NCBI GenBank assembly: GCA_000092065.1
Contig: CP000585.1
Source of the DNA: Ostreococcus lucimarinus
Lineage: Eukaryota
Direction: 5' to 3' (one strand)
DNA: 64,000 nt
Below the pieces are notes generated by a model, which had not been told where the DNA came from, did no database searches, and saw nothing but the letters and a program-made list of their open reading frames with translations. Both the position numbers and the translations under genes were made by a program. Below are positions 12,606 to 62,262 of the stretch, piece by piece; position 1 is the first letter of the stretch; every line of letters begins with the position of its first letter.

Positions 12606-13508
12606 CTACATCGTCGCGAGCTGCCGTCCTAGTCGCGCGCACCCTCGCTTGAGCGGAGACGCGATTCTATTTCTTCTAAAGCAAGCACCCCGCGTCGAGC
12701 GATGCATCGCCGTCGCTCTCGTCGCCGTCGCTGTGGTCGCTCCGCGCGCCGCCGAAGCTTGGACGTCGAGCGACGACGGTTTGTGAATACCGCAACGCTC
12801 GACGGTGATGCGCTGAAACGTCTCGCCCTCCTGCCTCGCGTCGCCGAGCTTTTGGAGAGCGTAAACGATATCGTACCCTTCGATGACCTGTCCGAACGCC
12901 ACGTGACGATTATCGAGCTGCGGCTTCGCGTCGAGCGTGAGCATGAACTGCGAGCCGTTGCGACCCGGCTCGCCGCCGCCGTCGTTGTGCATCGTCAACA
13001 CCCCTGGACCGCCGTGCTTGAGATTGAAATTTTCATCATCAAAGTACGCGCCGTAAATGCTCTGCCCCCCGGGCAACGCGTCCGGCAACAAGTTTGCGAA
13101 ATCGAAGAAATCCGGGTCCTCGGCGTTGTAAATCACCTCGTCCAGCTTCGTAAAGTCCCCGCCCACGATCCAATTCGACGGATACACCTTGAACATCGTC
13201 CCCGCGTAGCACCCATACTCGCACAATTGCGCGAAGTTCTTCGCCGTGATCGGGGCGACGTCTTCCTTGACCTCGAACACCACCCTCCCGAGGTAGTAGC
13301 CGCCCGCGCGCAGCTCGAGGAAGCACTGCGGATTGGCGTCGTTGATCGCGTACGGCGGCGCGTACGGCACGGGCACGATCTTCAGCGGTTCCGCGCGGCT
13401 CACTCGGGTCTCCCACTTCACCGCGTAGACGCCGCCGGGGGCGAGCGGGAGGATGGATGGGATGTCTTTCTTCTCGGCGTCGTCGGGGACGTCGTCGGGC
13501 GTCGACAT
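12606..13508 (-). CDS. Divergent cyclophilin-type peptidyl-prolyl cis-trans isomerase
   Basis: A cyclophilin-like domain (VFEVKEDVAPITAKNFAQLCE...GGDFTKLD...QFMLTLDAKPQLDNRHVAFGQVIEGYDIVYAL). ATG at 13508. The upstream 73 codons are Arg-rich and unlikely to be coding. Confidence 0.75.
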   Translation of the reverse strand: MSTPDDVPDDAEKKDIPSILPLAPGGVYAVKWETRVSRAEPLKIVPVPYAPPYAINDANPQCFLELRAGGYYLGRVVFEVKEDVAPITAKNFAQLCEYGCYAGTMFKVYPSNWIVGGDFTKLDEVIYNAEDPDFFDFANLLPDALPGGQSIYGAYFDDENFNLKHGGPGVLTMHNDGGGEPGRNGSQFMLTLDAKPQLDNRHVAFGQVIEGYDIVYALQKLGDARQEGETFQRITVERCGIHKPSSLDVQASAARGATTATATRATAMHRSTRGACFRRNRIASPLKRGCARLGRQLATM

Positions 13509-13781
13509 GGCGCGGGCGACGCGACGCGCGCGATCGGAGCGTCGCGAGGAAGGCGCTCGACGCGCGGGGTGGGCGCGCGTGGATGAACGCGGTGTGAGGA
13601 CGACGCGCGGGGCGGTGTGACGAGGAGTCGCAAAGATTACGTGGATAGCGCCGCCGGCGGACGGCGCCGAACGCGAAGGGCGCGAGAGGATCGTTGTTAT
13701 TTCGATGCAAAGAATTCGTTCAATCAATCGTGCTAGTCGATACTAATCATCATCGTCGTCTTTGAAGCGCTCGCCTCGCGC

Positions 13782-15434
13782 TCAGCGCAAGTCCACGCTC
13801 GACGCGTTCGGGATGCAGTGGGTGTGTAAAATTTCCTTCGTGGATTTTTTCGCCGCCTTGGTCTCGAGCACGATTTGTATCGATTGATCGAGCTCGATTT
13901 TCAAGTACTCGTGCTTGCAGCCTTCGACGATTTTCACGAGTTCGCGCAAGTTTCTCACGGATTTACCGTTCACGCCGCACACGACGACGTTGACGATGTC
14001 TTCATAGCCAATGTTGATGTCCGAGTTGAGCACTTGACTCACGACGACGACTTGATCGTCTGGCTTCTCCTTGTGCCCGTGCATCATCTTCGTCAGTAAA
14101 CGCAGCGGAGCGTCGTAATCGTAATCTTTACCGTATTCCGATCGCAAGTACGGCACACACACCACGGTGAAGACGATGCCCGCGCAAATGTAATACGACG
14201 GAGGCTTGCCCTCGATGTGCACCGGAACGAGGCGGTCGTGCGGCGTCAACGAAATGTCGAAATTCATCATCTTGCCATCGCGTAGGACGGTGACCGCAGC
14301 ACTATCGCCGACGTACTTGCGAGAGACTAAATAAGAAAAGTTAATGCGCTCGCCCGTTCTAAAAACCACGGTGCCGTCGGAAGCGACGTCGACGCCGTCG
14401 AATTTCATCAACACATCGCCGCGTTTCAACACCTTGGCAGCCGGCGCGAGAGGCGATAGACGTCGAAGCAAGACGCCGTTGTGCGCGGGTTTCATCCCGA
14501 GACTCTTCCGAAGCGATGGGTTCTCCAAGCGCTGGAACTCGCACTGCAGCGCCGGGAAACCGTTGTACACGCCCGTCCTCTTGAAGTCGCTAATAAAATG
14601 GTCGACGACGGGCGTCGGTATGATGTAGCCGATTCCTTCGGTGTCCGAGTCCTTGAGCGATTGAAACGCCACACCCACGCACTGCCCTTCGCGCCCGAAC
14701 GCCGGACCCCCGCTGTTGCCAGAATTGATAGCCGCGTCGATTTGCACCCCCAAAAGCTCCGTCGCGCCGTGCGAATACGACGTCACCTCTATCCGACTAA
14801 CCACCCCACTCGTGACGCTAATCGCGATCCCACCCACCGGATACCCAACCACAGTGACGCTGTCTTGCAAGCGAGGCAACACGCCGAACTTCACCGGCGC
14901 CACGCCCTCGAAAAACTCCTTCTCCTCCACCGTCAACAGCGCCAAGTCGCACTCCACGCCGATGGTCAACACCTTGGCCACGTACTTTTTATCGCTCCCG
15001 CGCTTCTTCAGCTTCACCTGCGTGTGATGTTCCACGCTGTGCGCGTTCGTCAGCACCATATTCCCCTCTATGACGAACCCCGTGCTCGTGCTCGAGCTCT
15101 GTCGCTTTCGCTGCCACGGCAGGCTCCAGTTCGGCTCGGTGTGCGTCGCGAACACCTTCACCACCGCGTCCAGCGGGTACTGCGGCGCGTCCTCGTCGTC
15201 GCTCGCCCATCCATCGACGTCCCCAAAGTAATCCACCGCGTCCTCCGACGACCGTCCGCTCGCCGGCGCCTCCGTCGCGTCCGTCTCGTCGTCCTCGTCC
15301 GCGTCTCGCGCGCCGCCTCGCCTTCGTCGCGTCGTCTCCTCCTTCACCGGCGTCTCCCCTCGCGCGCGCTTCGACGCGCGCGCCGGCGCCTTCGTCGCGC
15401 GCGTCTTTCCCGCGCGCTTCGTCGCGCGCGTCAT
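13782..15434 (-). CDS. DEG: DegP/HtrA-family serine protease (Deg9/Deg2-like) with a protease domain plus a PDZ-type C-terminal region
   Basis: [17 protein letters not shown]...DLALLTV...[15 protein letters not shown] gives the His/Asp/Ser triad context, with a long conserved C-terminal domain. The internal ATG at 15434 ([10 protein letters not shown]...) precedes a Lys-rich linker. The upstream 290 codons are Arg/Ser-rich and doubtful. Confidence 0.8.
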
Positions 15435-15578
15435 CGCGCGTCGCGTCGTGCGTCGCGCCGCGCCGGCGATCGTCGCGCGGCGTCGAGACGCCGCGCGCGA
15501 CGCACACACGGACCACACCACACCCGCGCCGCCCCGCCCGCGCGCCGCGCCCGCCCGCGCGCGTCGCACGACGCCGCG
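15435..15578. promoter_or_regulatory. 144-bp bidirectional promoter between the Deg protease (-) and the PAH-domain gene (+)
   Basis: Head-to-head ATGs at 15434 and 15579. Confidence 0.4.
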
Positions 15579-16272
15579 ATGGCGCTCGCGACGGCGCCGC
15601 CCGCGGGCAACGTCGCCGACGCGCTCGCGTACGTCCGCGAGGTCCGCGATCGGTTCGCGCGACAGACGGGAAAGTATCGCGAGTTCCTCGCCGCGATGCG
15701 CGACTTTAAGACTGGAACGTGCGTCGCGACGTCGCGCGACGCGACGCGACGCGACGCGACCGACGCGCGATGACGCGCGAGCGACGAACGACTGACGACG
15801 ACGACGACGGCGACGCAGGCTCACGCCCGAGGGCGTGATCGAGCGCGTGCGACGGTGCCTGCGAGGACACGACGATTTGCTCGACGGCTTTCGAGCGTTT
15901 CTGCCCGAGGTGCGGGACGCGCGAGACGAGACGGACGCGAGACGAGACGGAGACGGAGACGACGCGAAAACGACGACGATGGCGCGAGACGACGAAGGCG
16001 CGGTGACTGACGGTGACGCGCGACGCGCGGGTCGGGGCGCAGGGATACTCGACGGCGACGGCGACGGCGAGCGGGACGCGCGCGCGCGGACGACCGGCGA
16101 CGGCGAGCGGGCGCGGAAGACCGAGAAAGGCGCCGAGCGCGCGGGAGGTGGCGATGAAGCGCGAATGCGAGGTGCGCGGGCGACGGCGACGCGCGCGCGA
16201 CGCGCGCGCGGCGGCGAACGCGACGCCGATCGACGCGGGGAAAAGTCGGCTGGGGTCGGAGGGACTCTTTGA
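15579..16272 (+). CDS. PAH (paired amphipathic helix, Sin3-type) domain protein, two exons. Exon 1 is 15579..15718, intron 15719..15818, exon 2 15819..16272; an acidic/Gly-Arg low-complexity tail follows.
   Basis: Exon 1 gives [46 protein letters not shown] and exon 2 continues (T)[30 protein letters not shown]. Together they reconstruct one PAH domain collinear with Sin3 PAH1. The intron is bounded by GTGCGT...CAG, is 100 nt long, and is in phase 2. Confidence 0.65.
15719..15818 (+). other. Spliceosomal intron, 100 nt (GTGCGT...CAG), splitting the PAH domain
   Basis: Only this splice restores the conserved PAH half-motifs FKxG / TPEGVIxRVxxLxxGHxDLLxGFxxFLP in a single frame. Confidence 0.7.
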
Positions 16273-16348
16273 CGAGTCACGACCCGTCGATCGTTTGAAA
16301 CCACAGCCGTCCGACCGACCGACCTGATCCGACGGCGCGAACCGGCGG

Positions 16349-17563
16349 TTGGGGTCGCGCGGGCGACGCGCGCGGGACGGCGACGGTTTCGTTCGGTTCG
16401 CGAACGCGCGGAAGACGATCGAGCGCGTGACTGACTGTGTGCGCGAACGCGCGCGTGATAAGGCGACGCAGGAAACGGATGAGAATCGAAGCGCGACGTT
16501 ACTGAGCGGACAAGATTTGCTCAAGCGCATTCGCGCGCAGTACGCGTCGGACGACCGTCCGTATCAGGCGTTTTTACAGACGTTGATTAAGTTTAGGAAC
16601 AAGCAGTTCAGCGCGGAAGAGGTGGTGCAGAAGTGTGCGATATTGTTTTATGATCATCCGCAGTTATTGGAGGGTGAAAATGGGTTGGCCACCTTTGTGC
16701 CGAAGACGTGCAAGCCGCCGACGCGGTCGTCGTGGTTCGAGTGGAGTCCGGCGGTGCATCATCGCTTCAGCAGCGAGAGCTTTCGATTGTTCGTGCGCAC
16801 GTTGTTATTGTGTGAGTATAAAAGTCGCTTAACGCCGCCGGAGCCGAAGATGCGGCGTTGGCGTCTGACGGATGGCGACAGTAGCGAGTCGGATAGCGAC
16901 GACTACACGTCGTCGGACGAGAGCGAAAGCGAGAGTTCGACGGTGATAGAAAAAGAGTCTGGCACGCTTCGACCGGATCAAATTCCCGATCGATGGGTGG
17001 GTAAAATACACGACCGAACGTTGAGCGCGTTCGAGCGCCTGACTTTAGAGCTCAAACCGAAAGACGAAGAGTATTGCTGGGCCGACACCAAGGCGGCGCG
17101 CGAAGCCAAGGAGAGCAAGGACGCGATCGAACTTCGGGGCAAGCGCGGTCGCGGCGAAGAGCGAGATTTCACGACGACGCCTCGAGATTCACCATCACCG
17201 CCGCCGTCGTTTAATAAACGGCGCGCGAGCGCTCGCATCGTGGCCAAGGTGAACCGAGGCATCGTGTACAACCGCTATCGCAGCTTGGCGTCCCCCGACG
17301 GTCTCTCGCGCGGTCGCATGCGCATGACGCGATCGATGAGCACGGTGGACGACACCTTGCCCGCCAAACCAGATCGCAAGTTCTTGATCAATCGTGACGA
17401 AGGCAAGATGTCCCCGCTGTGCGCCGAGCGCATCGGATTACACTCCCTGCCCGCCGTCGCGCTCGAGAAAATCATCGCGTGCTACAGCGCGCAAGAGGGC
17501 GTCGCCGAGCTCAATCAAATTCGCGAGTCTCTGATCAAATCGCTCATAAAAAATAATAGGTAA
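16349..17563 (+). CDS. Second PAH-domain protein, possibly a downstream part of the same Sin3-like gene joined by an undetected intron. The PAH domain lies at ~16490-16720, with a Ser/acidic-rich C-terminal region.
   Basis: [63 protein letters not shown] fits the PAH consensus. I did not recognise the rest of the protein. Confidence 0.55.
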
Positions 17564-17780: not shown

Positions 17781-17951
17781 TCAGTGCCCGCCCGGATTCA
17801 CAAACTTGCTCGCCTTTTTGTCCGCCTCCGTGATTCCCATCGTCGCGTAGACCACCGCCACGCCGACGGCGCCGATGCCGGTGAAGAACGGCCACGCCTT
17901 GGGGATCTCGCGCGTGAGCGCCGACAGAAAGCTCGTGTTCGCGTGCGGCAT
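17781..17951 (-). CDS. Small single-TM protein (56 aa from the ATG at 17951); function unknown, possibly a small organellar membrane-complex subunit
   Basis: MPHANTSFLSALTREIPKAWPFFTGIGAVGVAVVYATMGITEADKKASKFVNPGGH. One hydrophobic helix, with AT-richer flanks. Confidence 0.3.
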   Translation of the reverse strand: MPHANTSFLSALTREIPKAWPFFTGIGAVGVAVVYATMGITEADKKASKFVNPGGH

Positions 17952-18055: not shown

Positions 18056-18667
18056 ATGACGAGCGACGACGCGCGCGCGTACGATCACCTGGTGAAAATC
18101 CTCCTCGTCGGCGACTCCGGGGTCGGGAAGTCGTCGCTGCTCGCGCGATTCATCAGCGATTCGTTCGACGAGCAGGGCCCGACGGTGGGCGTGGACTTTA
18201 AACTGAAACACGTCGACGTCGACGGGACGAGGCTGAAGCTCACGGTGTGGGACACCGCGGGACAGGAACGGTTTCGAACGCTGACGAGCTCGTATTACAG
18301 AGGCGCGCACGGGGTCGTGTTCGTGTACGACGTGACGTCGAGGGAAAGCTTTGAGAACGCGCGCGAGACGTGGCGAAAGGAGGTGGAGATGTACGGAACG
18401 ATCGCGAATTCGGTGAAGATTGTGATTGGAAATAAGATCGATAGGGAAGATGAACGAACGGTGGCGCGGAAGGAGGGCGTGGCGTTCGCGAAGGAGTATG
18501 GGTGCTTGTTTCTGGAGTGCAGCGCGAAGACCAAGGTGCGCGTGGCGGAGGCGTTCGACGAGTTGGTCAAGGGGATTTTGGACGCGCCGGGGTTGTTGGT
18601 GGACGAAGTCGACGATGGGGTGAAACTCGGCGCGTATGCCGATCGCGCGGGCGGTGGGTGCTGCTGA
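18056..18667 (+). CDS. RAB18: Rab family small GTPase, Rab18-like
   Basis: P-loop GDSGVGKSS, effector/switch TVGVDF, WDTAGQERFRTLTSSYYRGAHGVVFVYDVT, GNKID, ECSAKT, and a C-terminal GGGCC prenylation motif. ATG at 18056. Confidence 0.9.
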   Translation: MTSDDARAYDHLVKILLVGDSGVGKSSLLARFISDSFDEQGPTVGVDFKLKHVDVDGTRLKLTVWDTAGQERFRTLTSSYYRGAHGVVFVYDVTSRESFENARETWRKEVEMYGTIANSVKIVIGNKIDREDERTVARKEGVAFAKEYGCLFLECSAKTKVRVAEAFDELVKGILDAPGLLVDEVDDGVKLGAYADRAGGGCC

Positions 18668-18859: not shown

Positions 18860-19535
18860 CTAGAGTGGCGCGGCGATGACTGCCTCATACTTCTTAACCG
18901 TCGTCATCAACGAGAGATCGAAGAACTTTTCGCCGATGCTCGCCGTCAAACCACCGATCAATCGAGGGTCAACCACGGCCTCGATCTTCAGCGTCGAGCC
19001 CGATGGGGCGTGGCCCTTGATGGATTCCGTAACCTTGGTGAGCTGCGCCGGGGTGAGCGCCTGCGCCGTCGTGATGACGCACTTCACCTCGTTACGGGAA
19101 GCCATGCATTGCTCTTCGAAGCGAAGCGAAATCTTGTGCAACTCCTTCAGCCGTCCGTACTCCGCCATCGTGGCGACGAAGTTGCTCGTGATCGGCGTAA
19201 ACTTCGCGCCCGCGCAAAATTCCTTGACGCCCGCCAACTTCTTGCTCTTCGCCATCGACGGATCCATCAGAAACTGCTTAAACTTGAGATCTTTCTCGAC
19301 CAAAGCCGTGAGCTACATCGATGAAATCACGCGCGCGTCGATCGTCGTCAGTCACTCGTCCTCGTCTCGCCGTCGTCGTTCCGTCCCCTCTCTCTCGCGC
19401 GCGTCGCTCGTCTCGCGCTTTCAAACTCACCTGCGCCACTTCACTCTCAACCGCGGCCAAAGACCCAGCCTTCGTCGCCGCGACGTACAACGCCGTGGCG
19501 TACCGTCCGCTCGTCCCGAATTGTTGCAAAGGCGC
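18860..19535 (-). CDS. ATP5O: Mitochondrial ATP synthase OSCP (subunit O / delta-like), multi-exon. Exon 3 is 18860..19312 and exon 2 is 19431..19535. A tentative exon 1 (19847..19894) carries the Met and an MLRRLARCATARSTLE presequence.
   Basis: Exon 2 gives APLQQFGTSGRYATALYVAATKAGSLAAVESEVAQ and exon 3 gives LTALVEKDLKFKQFLMDP...LKIEAVVDPRLIGGLTASIGEKFFDLSLMTTVKK. Together they are collinear with OSCP (YGIEGRYATALYSAASK...LEQVEKEL...IGGM.VRIGEKYVDMS). The intron between them has a perfect CAG|GTGAGT donor and a TAG acceptor. Confidence 0.8.
19313..19430 (-). other. Spliceosomal intron, 118 nt, in the OSCP gene (GTGAGT...TAG)
   Basis: On the minus strand the donor reads cag|gtgagt at 19433-19425 and the acceptor reads gatgtag|CTCACG at 19319-19307. 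Both flanking exons are in phase 0. Confidence 0.75.
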
Positions 19536-19580
19536 CTGCGTCGTTCCGCCCGCGTCCCAAAGTCAGTCCCCGCGCCCGAT

Positions 19581-19592: not shown

Positions 19593-20058
19593 GCGCCCAC
19601 GCCTCGCCGTCCCGTCCCTCGCCCTCGTCCATCGCGTCCTCGAATTTCCCACGCACCTTCACGTCCCCCCCGCTCGCCCCCTTCGCGCTCGCCGTCGCGT
19701 ACGTTCGCTGCGAAGCGTCGTCGTCCGTCAGTCCTCGCGCGTCCCGATCGAATCTTCGCGCGCGTCGTCGCGCGTCGCCGTCGCGCGTCGCCGCGCGATT
19801 CGCGTCGCGTCGCATCGCGCGAATTTCGTCTCGCGCGTTCGCGCACCTCGAGCGTCGATCGCGCGGTCGCGCATCGCGCGAGTCGTCGAAGCATCGCGTC
19901 GTCCGCGTGTGCGGGTCGCGCGCGCGCGGGTCGACCGCGCCGCGCGGAAATCGCACGCGCGCGCGGCGCCGAGCTCGTAACACCAAAGACCAAAGCCGGC
20001 GCGCGTCCATCGCGCGCGGCACACGCGCGCGCGACGGCGAGCGCGCGCGACGACGCGC

Positions 20059-23046
20059 ATGGCGCGACGACGCGAGCGCACGCGTCGACGCGCGCGCTCG
20101 CGCGCGCGATGGACGCTCGGCGTCGTCGGAAGCGCGGTCTGCGCCTGCGCGACCGCGATCCGAGGCGCGCGCGCGGGCAACGCCATCGGCGCGGCGCTGC
20201 GCGCGACGGGAGGCGCGACGCGCGATGGGCGCGATGGTGGACGGGAAAACGATGGCGCGCGCGGGACGACGCGAGCGAGCGCGAGGGCGAGCGATGGGGC
20301 GAACGCGGTGGGCGTGGAGGAGCTGGACGAGAACGCGCGCGAGAGCGAAACCGCGGCGGCGATTCGTTCGGGCGCGCGGGTTCGATTGACGGACGCGCGA
20401 GCGCGAGAGATGCTGAGTGGGACGATGATGGCGATGTACGGTGGCTTAGGGGAGACCGGGGAGACGACGAATTCGATGGACGTGCTCGTCGGGAGCGGGA
20501 GCGGGGATTATCTGGCGTGGTGTCGACGCGGCGAGCGCGCGAGCGCGGCGCCGGCGGTGGCGAGTGTGGGCGCGGCGGTGCACGCGGACGCGAACAAAGT
20601 CATGTTTCACGGCGGGTACAAGGTTTGGGACGCTGGCAGCGAGTTTGAGGACTTTGCCTCGACGCGCGCGTTTGATATGAAGACGGGTGAGTTTGAATGC
20701 CTCACCGCCGGAACCGCCGAAAACGAAAAGGCTGCGCTGGGCCAGACCCACGGCGCGTGCCCGAAACTCCACGGCGCGCACACTGGTAAGCGCGACGAAG
20801 AAGTGGCCGTCATTACCACTAAGCCGATTCGTTTGCCGAAAGCAGTGGCGAAGAAAGAGACGGCTCACGTCGAGGCCGCGCTCGGTAAACACTTGACTCG
20901 CCCAGAGCTTCCCGCGATCGACGTCGAAGACGAGGAAGACGACGCGACAACGAGCTCTGTTGAAGAAACTACCGATGGCGAAGGTGCGTCTGAGCTGGGC
21001 AGTGAGTCCAAGCAGCACGCCATGATCATCTTTGGTGGTCGCGACGAGAACGACCAACGCTTGGACACCGTCTACGCGCTCGGTCTCGAAGACAAGAAAT
21101 GGCGGAAGATTGAGTACGAACTTCCAGACGAGCGAGACGACATGGTGCCCCAAGGACCGTTTGAAATGCCACTCATCGTGAAGAACGAGCATAAAAACGG
21201 GAAACCGTTTCCGCTTGGGCGTTCGGGCGCCACCGCGGTGGTGACCAAGGACAATAAGATGATTATTTACGGCGGCTTTGTCGTCGAGGGCCGCCTCGGT
21301 TTCAACGTCGGTGAAACGCTCGTGCTTGATTTAGATAAGATGAAGTTCAGCTACCCGATGACGAGTGGCTCTATTCCAGTTCGTCGTAACAAACACTCTG
21401 CAGTTCTTGACAACGAGAATCGCATGTGGATGTGGGGCGGTTCGGTTTGGGATCACACCGGAGGTAGCTCGACGTATGCGTCCACGGCGACGTACTACGC
21501 CGACGTGAGCAACCCCAAGTCCATCGTATGGCATCGTGTGGAAACGAAAGGCAAACCGCCGAGTCAGCGTCGATTCCATTCAGCCATCATCGTGGACGGC
21601 GGCATGTACATCATCGGCGGTGAAGACTATCGCACTCGGACGTACCTGAACGACGTCCACAGGCTCGACTTGAAGACGTTCACTTGGACGCAGCCCGCTG
21701 TTCTAGGTGGTCTCGAAGGTGGTCGAATCCGTTCGAGCATGTTCCCGTGGGTAACGGATGCGTTCAAGAAGCTGGCGCATCCTGAGGCGAGTTTAGGCAA
21801 GTCTCACCACGAGCACACGCACGACGACAAACACGAAGAAGATTTGAAGCGGAAGGTCTCGATCAAGGACGCGGATGAGGAAAAGCCAAAGGATGAAAAA
21901 AAGGACGAAACTAATGCTTTTTCGATCGACATTTCTACGTGCGGCAAAGGTGAACAGGCGCGCGTGCGCACCGGCGAGAACCAGCCTGAAATTGAGAACT
22001 TGATCTCGGTGCTCGTCGATGGTTCAACTTTGGCTTCCAAAAACGGAGCTCTCGGCGCGGAAGACCCGACCGACGCCGCATCGTTGGCAGCTAGTCTCGC
22101 TAGCAATGGCTGGCTTGCAAACACTGCTCGTGGAGCCTCGATTATGTCTGAATCCAGCATGGTGTGGCGCAAGGCGCCGAGTGTCGGCGAAAGCGAAGGC
22201 GTCCCGGGTTGGATCACTGATGCCGGCGGGCGCGATAGTTCGATCTTGACTGAAACTCTCGACGCAGATCCGGATGCGGCGAGCATCGAGGAGCGATTAC
22301 TCGCCGCCGTCAAGGCAGTGTCTAGTGACACAAAACTTAAGTCGAGCGGCGGTAGCGCGCACGCGGTGAAGAAATCTGAAACCAAGGAACACGAGAAAGC
22401 ATCGCCGAAGAAGCGCGTCGACTCAGAAGATGAAGATGACGAAAAGAAGACAAAGAAGAGTTCGCATCACGAGTCTTCGCCTCATCACAAATCATCGCGC
22501 GACCACGACGACGAGGACGAAGATGCCGAGGAGCCTAAATCCTTGAAATCGTCGCATCATAAGTCGTCCAAAGAGGCCAACCACGAGGATGACGACGAGG
22601 AATCGGAACACAAGACACATCACGGTTCTCGCCACAAAGACGAAGACGAAGACGAAGACGAAGACGAATCACGACACTCGTCTCACTCTCACTCGGCGTC
22701 TCACAAGAAGGAAAAGGTTCACCTCTCTGGTGCGGCCAAGATGCTTCAGATGATTCAATCCCAAGGTGCCGATGAGGCGAGGCTGGGTCGGGTCGCGAAC
22801 ATTCGCGCCGGCGACTCGGCACGTCACTTTTACTTGTGGAGCGGCGTCGCTCTGGTGGCGATCGCTGCGGCGATTCTTATCAACCAAAAGAAGACCGAGA
22901 AGAAGCAAGAGAGTGACGTCGAGCGAATTCCCTTAGTTTTGAGTAGCTCGTCGATCTCTGACTCGCCAAACAAGAGCGCCACGTGGCAGCAAGAAGCGTT
23001 AGCTCGCAGAGGGGTCAGGTATGGCGACGATTTTGACGAGCCATAG
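20059..23046 (+). CDS. Kelch-repeat beta-propeller protein with a long acidic/His-rich tail and a C-terminal TM helix
   Basis: Kelch blades (MIIFGGRDENDQRLDTVYAL, MIIYGGFVVEGRLGFNV, MWMWGGSVWDH, RFHSAIIVDGGMYIIGGEDYRTRTYLNDVHRLDLKTFTWTQ). The tail has HHESSPHHKSS...DEDEDEDEDESRHSSHSHSASHKKEK. The C-terminus has LWSGVALVAIAAAILINQKK. ATG at 20059. Confidence 0.7.
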   Translation: MARRRERTRRRARSRARWTLGVVGSAVCACATAIRGARAGNAIGAALRATGGATRDGRDGGRENDGARGTTRASARASDGANAVGVEELDENARESETAAAIRSGARVRLTDARAREMLSGTMMAMYGGLGETGETTNSMDVLVGSGSGDYLAWCRRGERASAAPAVASVGAAVHADANKVMFHGGYKVWDAGSEFEDFASTRAFDMKTGEFECLTAGTAENEKAALGQTHGACPKLHGAHTGKRDEEVAVITTKPIRLPKAVAKKETAHVEAALGKHLTRPELPAIDVEDEEDDATTSSVEETTDGEGASELGSESKQHAMIIFGGRDENDQRLDTVYALGLEDKKWRKIEYELPDERDDMVPQGPFEMPLIVKNEHKNGKPFPLGRSGATAVVTKDNKMIIYGGFVVEGRLGFNVGETLVLDLDKMKFSYPMTSGSIPVRRNKHSAVLDNENRMWMWGGSVWDHTGGSSTYASTATYYADVSNPKSIVWHRVETKGKPPSQRRFHSAIIVDGGMYIIGGEDYRTRTYLNDVHRLDLKTFTWTQPAVLGGLEGGRIRSSMFPWVTDAFKKLAHPEASLGKSHHEHTHDDKHEEDLKRKVSIKDADEEKPKDEKKDETNAFSIDISTCGKGEQARVRTGENQPEIENLISVLVDGSTLASKNGALGAEDPTDAASLAASLASNGWLANTARGASIMSESSMVWRKAPSVGESEGVPGWITDAGGRDSSILTETLDADPDAASIEERLLAAVKAVSSDTKLKSSGGSAHAVKKSETKEHEKASPKKRVDSEDEDDEKKTKKSSHHESSPHHKSSRDHDDEDEDAEEPKSLKSSHHKSSKEANHEDDDEESEHKTHHGSRHKDEDEDEDEDESRHSSHSHSASHKKEKVHLSGAAKMLQMIQSQGADEARLGRVANIRAGDSARHFYLWSGVALVAIAAAILINQKKTEKKQESDVERIPLVLSSSSISDSPNKSATWQQEALARRGVRYGDDFDEP
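22639..22668. repeat. (GACGAA)5 hexanucleotide microsatellite encoding DEDEDEDEDE inside the Kelch-protein tail
   Basis: Direct reading of 22621-22680. Confidence 0.8.

Positions 23047-42722: not shown

Positions 42723-42726
<4 letters not shown>

Positions 42727-42758
<32 letters not shown>
42727..42758. repeat. (GTC)~11 trinucleotide microsatellite in the 100-bp bidirectional promoter between the genes starting at 42665 (-) and 42768 (+)
   Basis: Direct reading of 42721-42760. Confidence 0.85.
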
Positions 42759-42760
<2 letters not shown>

Positions 42761-42767
42761 GCGCGAG

Positions 42768-43544
42768 ATGTCGATGGCGCGCGTCTTTCCGCGCGTCGCG
42801 TCGTCGCGCGCGCGGACGCCGCGCGACGGCGCGCGCGCGAGACGCGCTCGGCTGACGACGACGCGCGCGACGACCGAAAACGGCGGCGACGGCGACGCGG
42901 GCGCGAAGAAGGTCGGTCGGTTCGTGCGAAACGATGGCGCGACGCCGCGCGCGCCGCTGGGGAGCGGGCCGGGCGACGTCGGGCCCGCGGGCGTGGCGCC
43001 GCCGACGTCGACGATGAACGTCAAGGTGATTCCGCTGGAGGAGACGCGGTTCCAAGGCGTGGCGAACGCGGCGAAGGCGGAGACGGCGGCGGAGAGGAAT
43101 TATAGAATCGCGCAGTTGGTGGTGGGCGATTGCGCGGCGCTGCTGGCGTTCGCGGCGATCGGTCGGGGAAATCACGGGGAAGGGATGTACGCGGCGGATG
43201 TCGCGGCGACGGCGGCGCCGTTCGCGCTCGGGTGGTTCGGAGCGATGAAAATCGGGGATAGTTTCGGGAAAGACGCGCGGGGGAGCGATGGAATGAAAGC
43301 AGCGGTGAGCGCGGGAAAGACGTGGGCGGTCGCGGGACCCGTGGGTTTGGCTTTGCGCGCGCTCGGGAAAGGCGCGGCGCCGCCCGCGCCGTTCGTCGTC
43401 GTCTCGCTGACGTTCGCGGGTGCGTTTTTAATCGGTTGGCGCTACTGGTTCGCGAACTCGAAGAGCGACTCGGGGCGCGGAAACAAACAAGGCAACCCGC
43501 TCGAGTTCATGAACTTGCTCTTCGGCCTCGTCAAGCGCTGGTGA
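42768..43544 (+). CDS. Hypothetical organelle-targeted multi-pass membrane protein
   Basis: An Arg/Ala/Thr-rich transit-peptide-like N-terminus. It is followed by 3-4 hydrophobic helices (IAQLVVGDCAALLAFAAIG, AATAAPFALGWFGAMKIG, TWAVAGPVGLALRALG, FVVVSLTFAGAFLIGWRYWF). ATG at 42768. Confidence 0.5.
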   Translation: MSMARVFPRVASSRARTPRDGARARRARLTTTRATTENGGDGDAGAKKVGRFVRNDGATPRAPLGSGPGDVGPAGVAPPTSTMNVKVIPLEETRFQGVANAAKAETAAERNYRIAQLVVGDCAALLAFAAIGRGNHGEGMYAADVAATAAPFALGWFGAMKIGDSFGKDARGSDGMKAAVSAGKTWAVAGPVGLALRALGKGAAPPAPFVVVSLTFAGAFLIGWRYWFANSKSDSGRGNKQGNPLEFMNLLFGLVKRW

Positions 43545-60350: not shown

Positions 60351-61315
60351 TCATCGCTCGTCCTCGTCTTCGTCGTCTTCGTCCCAGAAATCCTTGATGG
60401 CGCGGATCGTGGATTGTAACTTGGGTTTGTTCACGAGTTTGCGTCGCAGACCGTAGCCACCGTCGGTCTCCATGACGAGATTAGGTCCGGTTAAGAAGGC
60501 CAACGCGGCGCCGCCGACGAGTCCGCCGGCGTGCCCCCAATTGTCTATTCGTCTACTCGTGAGACCGAAACCCATGTTCACCGCCAACGCCGTGCCGAGT
60601 TGTTGCAGCTGCATGTCCGCGCGCTCGCCTAAATATCGCTTGTGGCGCTGCAAGTACACCGCCAACGCGCCGGCCAAGCCGAAGACGGCGCCGCTCGCGC
60701 CGACGCTATTCGACGCGCAAAACCGATAACTCGCGTAATTTCCAGCCACGCCCGCGCCGAAATACACCGCTAAAAACTGTTCGCGCCCGAACGTCGCCTC
60801 CATGAGCGGTCCGATGCTGTTCAACGAGTACATATTCACCATCAAGTGCGGCAGCCCGCCGTGCAAAAAAATCGGCGTCGCCAACCGCCACAGCTGCCCC
60901 GCGGCGATCCGTTCGTTCACCTTCGCCCCGAGCGCGGTGATCGCCTGTCCGCTCAAAATCTGTAACGCGAACGCGCTCGCCGTGCCGATCATGATGGCGT
61001 TCGTGCACGCGCGATCGGGATCGTCGAACACGCCGCGCGCCGCCGCGCGGCGTCCGCCCTCGCGTCGTCGCCCCCCTCCTCGCGCCCCGTCCGCGCGCTC
61101 GCCCGGGCCCGCGAGCGCCGCGCCGAGCGCGACCGCGTTCGCCGCCTTCCCGACCATCGGCGCCGCGCGTCGCGCGCCGTCGCGCACCGCCCGCGCCGTC
61201 GCCGTCGCGTCCTCGCGCGCGCGTCGCCGTCGTCGTCGTCGCGCGTCGCGCGTCGCGTCGTCGCCGCGATCGAACGCGCCGAGCCCGCGACCGAGCGCGA
61301 CGAAGCGCGTCATCT

Positions 61316-61346
<31 letters not shown>

Positions 61347-61565
61347 TCCGCCGGCGCGGCGTCGGCGTGTGCGGCGGACGACGCGCGTCGTCAGAGCGAC
61401 GCGCGCGATGGCGACGGCGACGCGCGCGACGGCGTCGATCGCGTCGAGCGCGCGCGCGCGCGTTCGAGCGCGGCGGACGACGACGACGACGCGCGCGCGC
61501 GACGACGACGCGGACGCGGGACTGAAGGCGGCGTGGTACGGCGCGGAAGCGTTCGGCAATCTCAT
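60351..61565 (-). CDS. Rhomboid-family intramembrane serine protease. The true start is probably an internal Met near 61312 or 61157, which would make the N-terminal ~85-135 codons non-coding.
   Basis: WRLATPIFLHGGLPHLMVNMYSL, the GASGAVFGLAG catalytic Ser motif, and the downstream His in NWGHAGGLVGG. There are 6-7 hydrophobic helices. The upstream Arg-rich part overlaps the divergent DUF2358-like gene. Confidence 0.75.
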
Positions 61566-62262
61566 CGGCGCGACGCGCGCGACGACGACGCACGGGACGA
61601 CGACGACGACGACGGCGATGACGCGCGAGGGCGCGCTCGAGTCGATTCGCGCGGATTACGCCGAGGAGTACTTCGTGAGCGGGCGAGGCGAGATGGCGGC
61701 GTACGCGGGCGACTGCGAGTTCGCCGATCCGTTCGTGTCGTTCCGAGGTTTGGATAGATTTCGCGCGAACGTGGCGAACTTGGGAGGGATGATGCGGGAG
61801 GTTGATCTGCAGATTAAGTCGTTCGAGGAGACGGAGGACGGGGTGCAGACGGAGTGGAGGTTTTCTTGCGTTTTAGACTTACCCTGGAGGCCGATGCTCG
61901 CGGCGAGCGGGGGCACGACGCACGTGTTAAACGACGAGAATCGGGTGGTTCGGCACTACGAGCGGTGGGACGTCGATCCGAAGAAGGTGTTGGGGCAGCT
62001 CTTGAAGCCGGCGTCGAAGATTCCGGAGAACCAGGCGGAGGTGTTCATGGCGTCGGCGGGGTCGGGGGACGTCGTCGGCGCGTTGGGCGCCGTCGCGCCG
62101 GTGCTGCTTCGCGCGAGCGCGCCGCTGTGGTTGACGTCGGCGGCGCTGCGCGCGGGGACGCACACGGAATCGACTGGGATCGAGGGTTTCTTCGGTTGGC
62201 TTTTCGCGTTGGCTTGCGTGAGCCAAGTCGCCAAGTTCTTGCGCGGCATCGGAATTTCTTAA
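61408..62262 (+). CDS. Plastid-targeted DUF2358-like (NTF2-like fold) protein
   Basis: After an Ala/Thr/Arg-rich transit peptide comes SIRADYAEEYFVSGRGEMAAYAGDCEFADPFVSFRGLDRFRANVANLGG...WRFSCVLDLPWRPMLAASGGTTHVL. I recall this pattern from the cyanobacterial/plant DUF2358 family. ATG at 61408. Confidence 0.55.
   Translation: MATATRATASIASSARARVRARRTTTTTRARDDDADAGLKAAWYGAEAFGNLIGATRATTTHGTTTTTTAMTREGALESIRADYAEEYFVSGRGEMAAYAGDCEFADPFVSFRGLDRFRANVANLGGMMREVDLQIKSFEETEDGVQTEWRFSCVLDLPWRPMLAASGGTTHVLNDENRVVRHYERWDVDPKKVLGQLLKPASKIPENQAEVFMASAGSGDVVGALGAVAPVLLRASAPLWLTSAALRAGTHTESTGIEGFFGWLFALACVSQVAKFLRGIGIS

Follow-up and report, generated by a model that had tools for sequence, protein, structure and literature searches.

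A two-PAH gene of Ostreococcus lucimarinus with an intron inside its first PAH domain and a probable exon missing from the reference model

Sin3 scaffolds (yeast Sin3, mammalian SIN3A/B and Arabidopsis SNL1-6) are proteins of more than 1000 aa with at least three PAH domains, which are four-helix bundles that bind the short amphipathic SID helices of DNA-binding regulators, together with a histone deacetylase (HDAC)-interaction domain (HID) and a Sin3a_C domain. Plants also encode many short proteins that contain PAH domains only. Here, we analyzed positions 15579-17563 of a 64,000-nucleotide (nt) stretch of contig CP000585.1 from Ostreococcus lucimarinus (the window, hereafter), where a preliminary description made from the sequence alone had seen a PAH domain split by an intron and a second PAH domain in a separate open reading frame (ORF). 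Our results show that these positions very probably correspond to one nuclear protein-coding gene of O. lucimarinus CCE9901 with both PAH domains in one deposited protein (XP_001417733.1/ABO96026.1), that the sequence between the two domains most likely consists of two introns and a 129-nt exon, which gives a protein of 483 aa, and that this protein belongs to a family other than Sin3. The nearest functional analogy for such an HID-less PAH protein is the natural short isoform of mouse Sin3B, which consists of PAH domains only, cannot recruit HDACs and may still engage transcription factors (PMC4914931); its existence also weakens the earlier premise that a PAH protein lacking the HID would be unusual.

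The locus was identified through the neighboring Rab-like protein (18056-18667), which is an exact match to XP_001417734.1 of O. lucimarinus CCE9901. The PAH gene itself was found among the members of its homolog cluster as a 440-aa "predicted protein" (XP_001417733.1, ABO96026.1, UniProt A4RXD9), which ruled out that it was unannotated. Since this entry has the same start codon, intron 1, exon 2 and last exon as our four-exon model (Table 1), and the same two PAH domains, intron 1 and the union of both domains in one gene are already part of the reference annotation. It differs from the model by the 43 residues of exon 3, in the absence of which GFRAFLPE is joined straight to exon 4 over a single 562-nt intron (15910-16471), while the exact 483-aa sequence is absent from a collection of 15 billion protein sequences. 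Thus, the intron and the two-PAH gene were already known, and what is new is a probable missed exon of 129 nt and an uncharacterized PAH family.

The interruption of the first PAH domain (PAH1) is far above chance as an observation. From the ATG at 15579-15581, the exon-1 frame runs to ...MRDFKTG plus the two letters AC at 15718, and a different frame resumes at 15819. It had been proposed that a phase 2 intron of the form GTGCGT...CAG lies between these points and that its removal restores a single PAH domain, and every coordinate of that proposal proved correct, with the donor beginning at 15719 and the CAG ending at 15818. If the intron is read through, a TGA stop is met at 15771-15773 and the 64-aa product matches Pfam PF02671 (PAH) with only 14.4 bits over profile positions 2-16, below the gathering cut-off of 21.3 bits, whereas the spliced product matches it with 51.3 bits (E 9.4e-14) over positions 2-45 of 45.

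We compared this structure with the loci of five other species, with six O. lucimarinus population haplotypes (metagenome contigs) and with Micromonas-type transcript-derived proteins. The same gene structure was found in all five related genomes: the four-exon model is intact in three further Ostreococcus-type species and in a Bathycoccus-like locus (46% GC), and a Micromonas-like genomic locus displays the same layout with one extra intron inside the second PAH domain (PAH2). In every one of these genomes, from the four of Ostreococcus type to the Bathycoccus-like and Micromonas-like ones, intron 1 splits the same codon in phase 2; since the interruption extends even to the last two, intron 1 is an ordinary, ancient spliceosomal intron of an already annotated gene. 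Exon 2 measures 91 nt in the Bathycoccus-like locus and in all but one of the four Ostreococcus-type species, the exception having 94 nt, and intron 2 comes directly after FLP(E/D) across related loci or, in L005, after FLPNE. The extra PAH2 intron is located between FTTEQ and VIKNV (L020 3890-4270, P0056/P0238), with no equivalent in Ostreococcus or in the Bathycoccus-like locus. L020, a long-read Micromonas-like contig, contains frameshifts inside conserved exons that are probably homopolymer assembly errors, and it was used for exon mapping only.

Population data also distinguished exons from introns, as frame-breaking indels were confined to introns in the six haplotypes. Intron 1 varied at 13 sites per 100 nt, carried indels of 4, 5, 1, 1 and 1 nt and ranged from 95 to 100 nt in length, and intron 2 displayed 1-nt and 3-nt indels, while exons 1, 2 and 3 were fixed at 140, 91 and 129 nt, respectively, with 1-3 variable sites each and no indels. 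The 4-5 nt indels of intron 1 are located in a pentamer repeat.

The second PAH domain had been placed in an ORF spanning 16349-17563. That ORF does contain a PAH match (35.5 bits, E 8e-9), but its first 123 nt (16349-16471) fall within intron 3 and are not coding, its TTG start being spurious and the true exon beginning at 16472. This assignment as intron follows from two observations: in all ORF-type homologs, protein conservation begins right after the CAG of the intron 3 acceptor, and intron 3 carries seven indels (2, 3, 2, 3, 4, 7 and 1 nt) against a close relative (L009), to which it is 85.9% identical. Exon 4 is instead under strong constraint, with 98.8% identity to L009 and a single 3-nt indel, mismatches that are mostly at third codon positions (3/2/8 by position) and a mean column identity of 72% across Ostreococcus-type homologs.

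Transcript-derived orthologs also join the two domains. In a profile search, full-length proteins of Micromonas-like type (475-487 aa) aligned over 97-99% of the model; they contain both PAH domains and belong to a cluster that includes two MMETSP transcripts. The C-terminal parts of these proteins are identical to metagenomic genomic ORFs that have intron-derived junk N-termini, and the contig L021, which resembles complementary DNA (cDNA), aligns with the genomic contig L020 in separate exon blocks. In the Micromonas-type genus, both PAH domains are demonstrably encoded by one spliced mRNA, in which the junction left by the PAH1 intron lies at the homologous codon (between MRDFKNAR and SDTGEVV). 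As the homologous introns are missing from these transcripts, they lend indirect support to intron removal in O. lucimarinus. Together with the GenBank record and with the intron-like behavior of the intervening sequence in the comparative and population data, this bears out one of the two options that had been considered before, namely a single gene with further introns that had escaped detection.

In O. lucimarinus, introns confirmed by expressed sequence tags outside chromosome 2 have a GTGCGTG 5' splice site and a CGCAG acceptor, with ACTGAC in 87% and GACTGACG in 66.5% of them and a distance of ~20-35 nt from the branch point to the AG (Irimia & Roy 2008, PMC2483917). All three introns of the PAH gene conform to this description, with no material difference: they start with GTGCG (GTGCGTC, GTGCGGG and GTGCGCG), contain (G)ACTGAC at 23, 32 and 37 nt from their 3' end and finish with CGCAG. 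With its three introns in 900 nt, the gene exceeds the average of this genome. A composite 3' signal made of ACTGAC, 12-40 nt and CGCAG was found exactly three times on the plus strand of the window, always at a predicted 3' splice site (15818, 16042 and 16471), for a chance expectation of ~0.64 per strand.

The minus strand of the window contains only two such composite signals (19536-19567 and 19708-19732), with GTGCG donors upstream (~19656; 19846-20081). Both are just upstream of an OSCP-type ATP-synthase ORF (18860-19303, minus strand) and probably belong to introns at the 5' end of the OSCP gene or of a neighbor. A source of the three PAH gene introns in repeat elements or in introners, the repeated intron families seen in Micromonas, was also considered and rejected: blastn searches against the 64-kb window returned no full-length copy, only low-complexity GCGAC-type matches of 30-110 nt to intergenic sequence with 70-95% identity. 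Non-coding DNA in the window is dominated by GCGAC/GACGCG-type low-complexity repeats (for example at 15729-15760, 15418-15491, 42724-42898 and 61163-61629), which create spurious long ORFs on both strands and cross-matches between introns and intergenic regions.

The same signals delimit what is likely a 129-nt exon (16043-16171) missed by the reference model, which would add 43 residues to the protein. This segment is bracketed by a GACTGACG...CGCAG acceptor ending at 16042 and by a GTGCGCG donor at 16172, and it is open in the frame of exon 2. It begins with GY, completing the canonical FLPxGY end with which PAH1 resembles Sin3 PAH domains. Equivalent exons, all open, multiples of 3 in length and bracketed by splice signals, were found in each of the six species (129 nt here; 195, 102, 141, 39 and 48 nt elsewhere), and the 48-nt exon of the Micromonas-like locus (PYKFNATK...) has a homolog (PYKFSAEQ...) in cDNA-derived proteins. 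The portion of exon 3 that is covered by L009 is free of indels, as it is in the haplotypes. AlphaFold2 predicted the exon 3 segment to be disordered; it encodes two AT-hook-like cores (GRGRPRK and ARGRPA) in this species, and a comparable one (ERGRPRG) is found in L001.

At the protein level, Pfam recognized two PAH stretches in the 483-aa model (total score of 85.5 bits, E 1.9e-24) and nothing else; a PAH match was obtained for 19 of the 22 family members, and no other domain in the set. Sin3_corepress/HID (PF08295) and Sin3a_C gave no match at E ≤ 5 in the model or in three orthologs, and all 22 members were negative for them at E ≤ 1. The position of the stop codon is conserved in Bathycoccus-like and Micromonas-like proteins, and all orthologs are 440-503 aa long with only two PAH stretches. 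Since both Sin3 domains are missing throughout and the stop is conserved across genera, the protein is not a truncated or mis-modeled Sin3. The terms "Sin3-type" and "Sin3-like" used in the preliminary description are therefore adequate for the PAH domains and not for orthology: from its domain content, this two-PAH protein of ~440-483 aa is a member of the PAH-domain superfamily and not a Sin3 ortholog. UniProt automatically assigned the name "Histone deacetylase interacting domain-containing protein" to A4RXD9 and to A0A7S0PRN5, an ortholog from an Ostreococcus transcriptome; this name is unsupported by the domain searches, as PF08295 was not detected in any family member.

The resemblance to Sin3 is thus restricted to the PAH bundles, for which Sin3 PAH1/PAH2 are the closest relatives by profile (a weak match) and by predicted fold. 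The best Foldseek matches in the PDB were Sin3B/Sin3A PAH1 structures, including PAH1 complexes, with a probability of 1.0 and a template modeling score of 0.65-0.71 on the target. AlphaFold2 placed PAH1 helices at residues 12-30, 33-44, 50-61 and 65-72 with a predicted local distance difference test (pLDDT) of ~65-75, and PAH2 helices at 131-143, 149-162 and 168-178 with a pLDDT of 77-89, the fourth PAH2 helix being poorly formed. PAH2 also differs from its Sin3 counterparts by a 3-residue insertion, and Sin3 has no counterpart of the C-terminal 280 residues.

These 280 residues are conserved in about twenty Ostreococcus-, Bathycoccus- and Micromonas-like clusters, as detected by an exhaustive profile search of 1.84 billion representative sequences. 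They include a WFxWxP..H..F..FR..V..LLLCE motif, an acidic Ser/Asp/Glu tract, a SPPPP.. segment, a basic KRRASARI...KVNRG patch and an amphipathic C-terminal helix (GLHSLP...EG..EL). Isolated helices were predicted at 222-240, 324-343 and 448-478, Foldseek returned nothing significant beyond the PAH domains, and pLDDT values were below 50 over residues 246-417; the model being too weak there, a fold-based annotation of this region was abandoned. A C-terminal F-box was also discarded, as the likeness of the GLHSLPxxxxExI segment was by eye only and no F-box family matched at E ≤ 1 in any of the 22 members. Taken together, these comparisons point to a small uncharacterized family with the arrangement PAH - linker - PAH - conserved C-terminal region, all members found so far being Mamiellales-type sequences. 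Our search of the literature on PAH proteins in Ostreococcus yielded nothing specific.

By analogy with Sin3, the protein would likely serve in the nucleus as an adaptor or a decoy for proteins that carry Sin3-interaction motifs. Its two four-helix PAH bundles would bind the short amphipathic SID-type helices found in DNA-binding regulators, and its conserved C-terminal region and basic linker might tie those regulators to other partners or to chromatin. With two PAH domains and no HID, it could not recruit HDACs in the manner of Sin3, so that it may act as an HDAC-independent adaptor, or else compete with Sin3 for its partners, as suggested for the short isoform of mouse Sin3B (PMC4914931). 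That isoform is an alternative splice product of a true Sin3 gene, whereas the protein described here is encoded by a separate gene with its own conserved C-terminal region. A further idea, that this is a lineage-specific family of HDAC-independent transcriptional adaptors or Sin3-partner decoys, with exon 3 in O. lucimarinus adding a genuine AT-hook that would tether the protein to AT-rich DNA, is put forward tentatively, and we regard it as doubtful.

Several points weigh against the proposed gene structure or the proposed role. Nucleotide conservation of exon 3 is no better than that of the introns, and skipping this exon, which the reference annotation omits, keeps the frame since both junctions are phase 0; exon 3 could therefore be a cassette exon. 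No O. lucimarinus transcript or peptide was found, the GenBank prediction is the only protein in the 15-billion-sequence collection that spans an Ostreococcus exon junction, and the Bathycoccus-like and Micromonas-like labels come from GC content, synteny and similarity rather than from named records. The RGRP cores are absent from L005, L007, the Bathycoccus-like locus and the Micromonas-like proteins; as they are present only in this species and in one relative, both of Ostreococcus type, the AT-hook was not counted as a family feature and was dropped as a conserved functional element. Concerning function, the adaptor model rests wholly on the role of PAH domains in Sin3, the mean pLDDT of the AlphaFold2 model is low (54), and none of the best 150 of 187 profile matches is a relative of the C-terminal region outside the family, the other proteins, Sin3-like ones included, matching over PAH columns only. 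The points on exon 3 are also those that speak for the deposited three-exon model, in which 15910-16471 is one intron of 562 nt, the 129 nt are intronic or a minor cassette exon and the real or main mRNA encodes 440 aa; the low complexity of the segment, its intron-like divergence between species and its predicted disorder go in the same direction. We nevertheless consider this model unlikely. Its intron would be three times as long as the mean intron of the species (187-188 bp, PMC2367439), and it would contain an internal acceptor followed by a donor, although the chance of such a 3' signal within 562 nt is roughly 0.006 when estimated from the window-wide rate. Splice signals and open exons with lengths in multiples of 3 would moreover have to recur there in all related species, one of them with a homologous small exon in Micromonas-type cDNA.

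The remaining explanations all appear highly improbable. Two independent tandem genes for minimal PAH-only proteins (15579-~16272 and 16349-17563), the second option envisaged earlier, would agree with the separate ORFs that prokaryote-style callers report in many metagenome contigs. We rejected this option, as the start of the downstream ORF is intronic: its 41 N-terminal residues are unconserved even in relatives that are 96-97% identical, where frame-breaking indels occur, and in-frame splice signals that are conserved across genera connect the two halves, as do the orthologous transcripts and GenBank. Even less credible is a true Sin3 ortholog with an HID encoded by further missed exons. 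The affinity of the PAH domains to Sin3 PAH1/PAH2 and the UniProt name of A4RXD9 speak in its favor. Against it, the HID and Sin3a_C searches were negative, the C-terminus and stop codon are conserved in all orthologs, transcript-derived ones included, and the DNA downstream of this stop is taken up by a small minus-strand ORF and then by the Rab-like GTPase gene. As for an assembly error, a frameshift or a decaying pseudogene, nothing specific favors them apart from the GC-rich, repetitive (GCGAC repeats) and error-prone type of sequence, and we give them almost no weight: the same structure, with intact open exons and conserved splice signals, recurs in five other species and in each of six independent metagenome haplotypes, and the constraint on exon 4 is not that of a pseudogene. 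The single spliced gene, most likely with four exons, is thus the structure that we retain, as detailed in Table 1.

Table 1. Coordinates of the features of the PAH gene in the window
Feature	Positions	Strand	Description	Basis
5' region (promoter and 5' untranslated region)	15433-15578		Short region that separates the PAH gene from the divergent DegP-like protease gene (minus strand, start ~15432)	ORF list, Pfam
Exon 1	15579-15718	+	140 nt, phase 2 at its 3' end; contains the ATG and the first half of PAH1	XP_001417733.1 N-terminus
Intron 1	15719-15818	+	100 nt; GTGCGTC donor, GACTGACG branch motif at 15790-15797 (23 nt from 3' splice site), CGCAG acceptor	
Exon 2	15819-15909	+	91 nt, phase 0 at its 3' end; second half of PAH1, up to ...GFRAFLPE	
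Intron 2	15910-16042	+	133 nt; GTGCGGG donor, GACTGACG at 16005-16012 (32 nt from 3' splice site), CGCAG acceptor	
Probable exon 3	16043-16171	+	129 nt (43 codons), phase 0 at both ends; encodes a linker, predicted to be disordered, with two RGRP cores that resemble AT-hooks; not in GenBank model	Inferred
Intron 3	16172-16471	+	300 nt; GTGCGCG donor, GACTGACT at 16429-16436 (37 nt from 3' splice site), CGCAG acceptor	
Exon 4	16472-17563	+	1092 nt including TAA stop; PAH domain 2 (~16502-16705), then conserved C-terminal region of Mamiellales-type sequences	

Around the PAH gene, the syntenic order in related metagenomic genomes is cyclophilin, DegP-like protease, PAH gene, small minus-strand ORF, Rab-like GTPase and OSCP. 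The 5' half of the PAH gene is overlapped by a minus-strand ORF of 840 aa (13782-16304), the real part of which only extends from ~15432 to 13782 and encodes a 550-aa DegP-like protease (Trypsin_2 and PDZ_3), the remainder being a stop-free artifact of GC-rich sequence. This protease gene and the PAH gene are divergent, with only ~146 nt between them, and the interval (15433-15578) is highly variable in the population haplotypes (10 variable sites per 100 nt, indels of 1-3 nt). Between the PAH and Rab-like genes, a small minus-strand ORF (17781-17951) encodes 56 aa from its second ATG (MPHANTSFLSALTREIPKAWPFFTGIGAVGVAVVYATMGITEADKKASKFVNPGGH) with one hydrophobic helix, and a Pfam search with it gave no match; its equivalents at the same syntenic position are 54-57 aa long in the Ostreococcus-type loci that reach that far and 43 aa long in the Bathycoccus-like locus. 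Finally, the cyclophilin (12606-13727, minus strand) clusters at ≥90% identity (that is, at least 90%) with MDA9766590.1, a "peptidylprolyl isomerase [bacterium]" from a 563-kb contig, and an Ostreococcus contig therefore appears to be mis-binned in a GenBank "bacterium" metagenome-assembled genome.

These findings change little for biology at large, the reference annotation already containing both this intron and a gene with two PAH domains. In practice, the reference gene model likely needs a correction that adds the 43 residues encoded at 16043-16171, and the species-specific signals (GTGCG, GACTGACG and CGCAG) are shown to mark introns sharply in this genome. The analysis also delineates a small PAH family with a conserved C-terminal region, which could interest those who study transcription regulation in minimal green algae.

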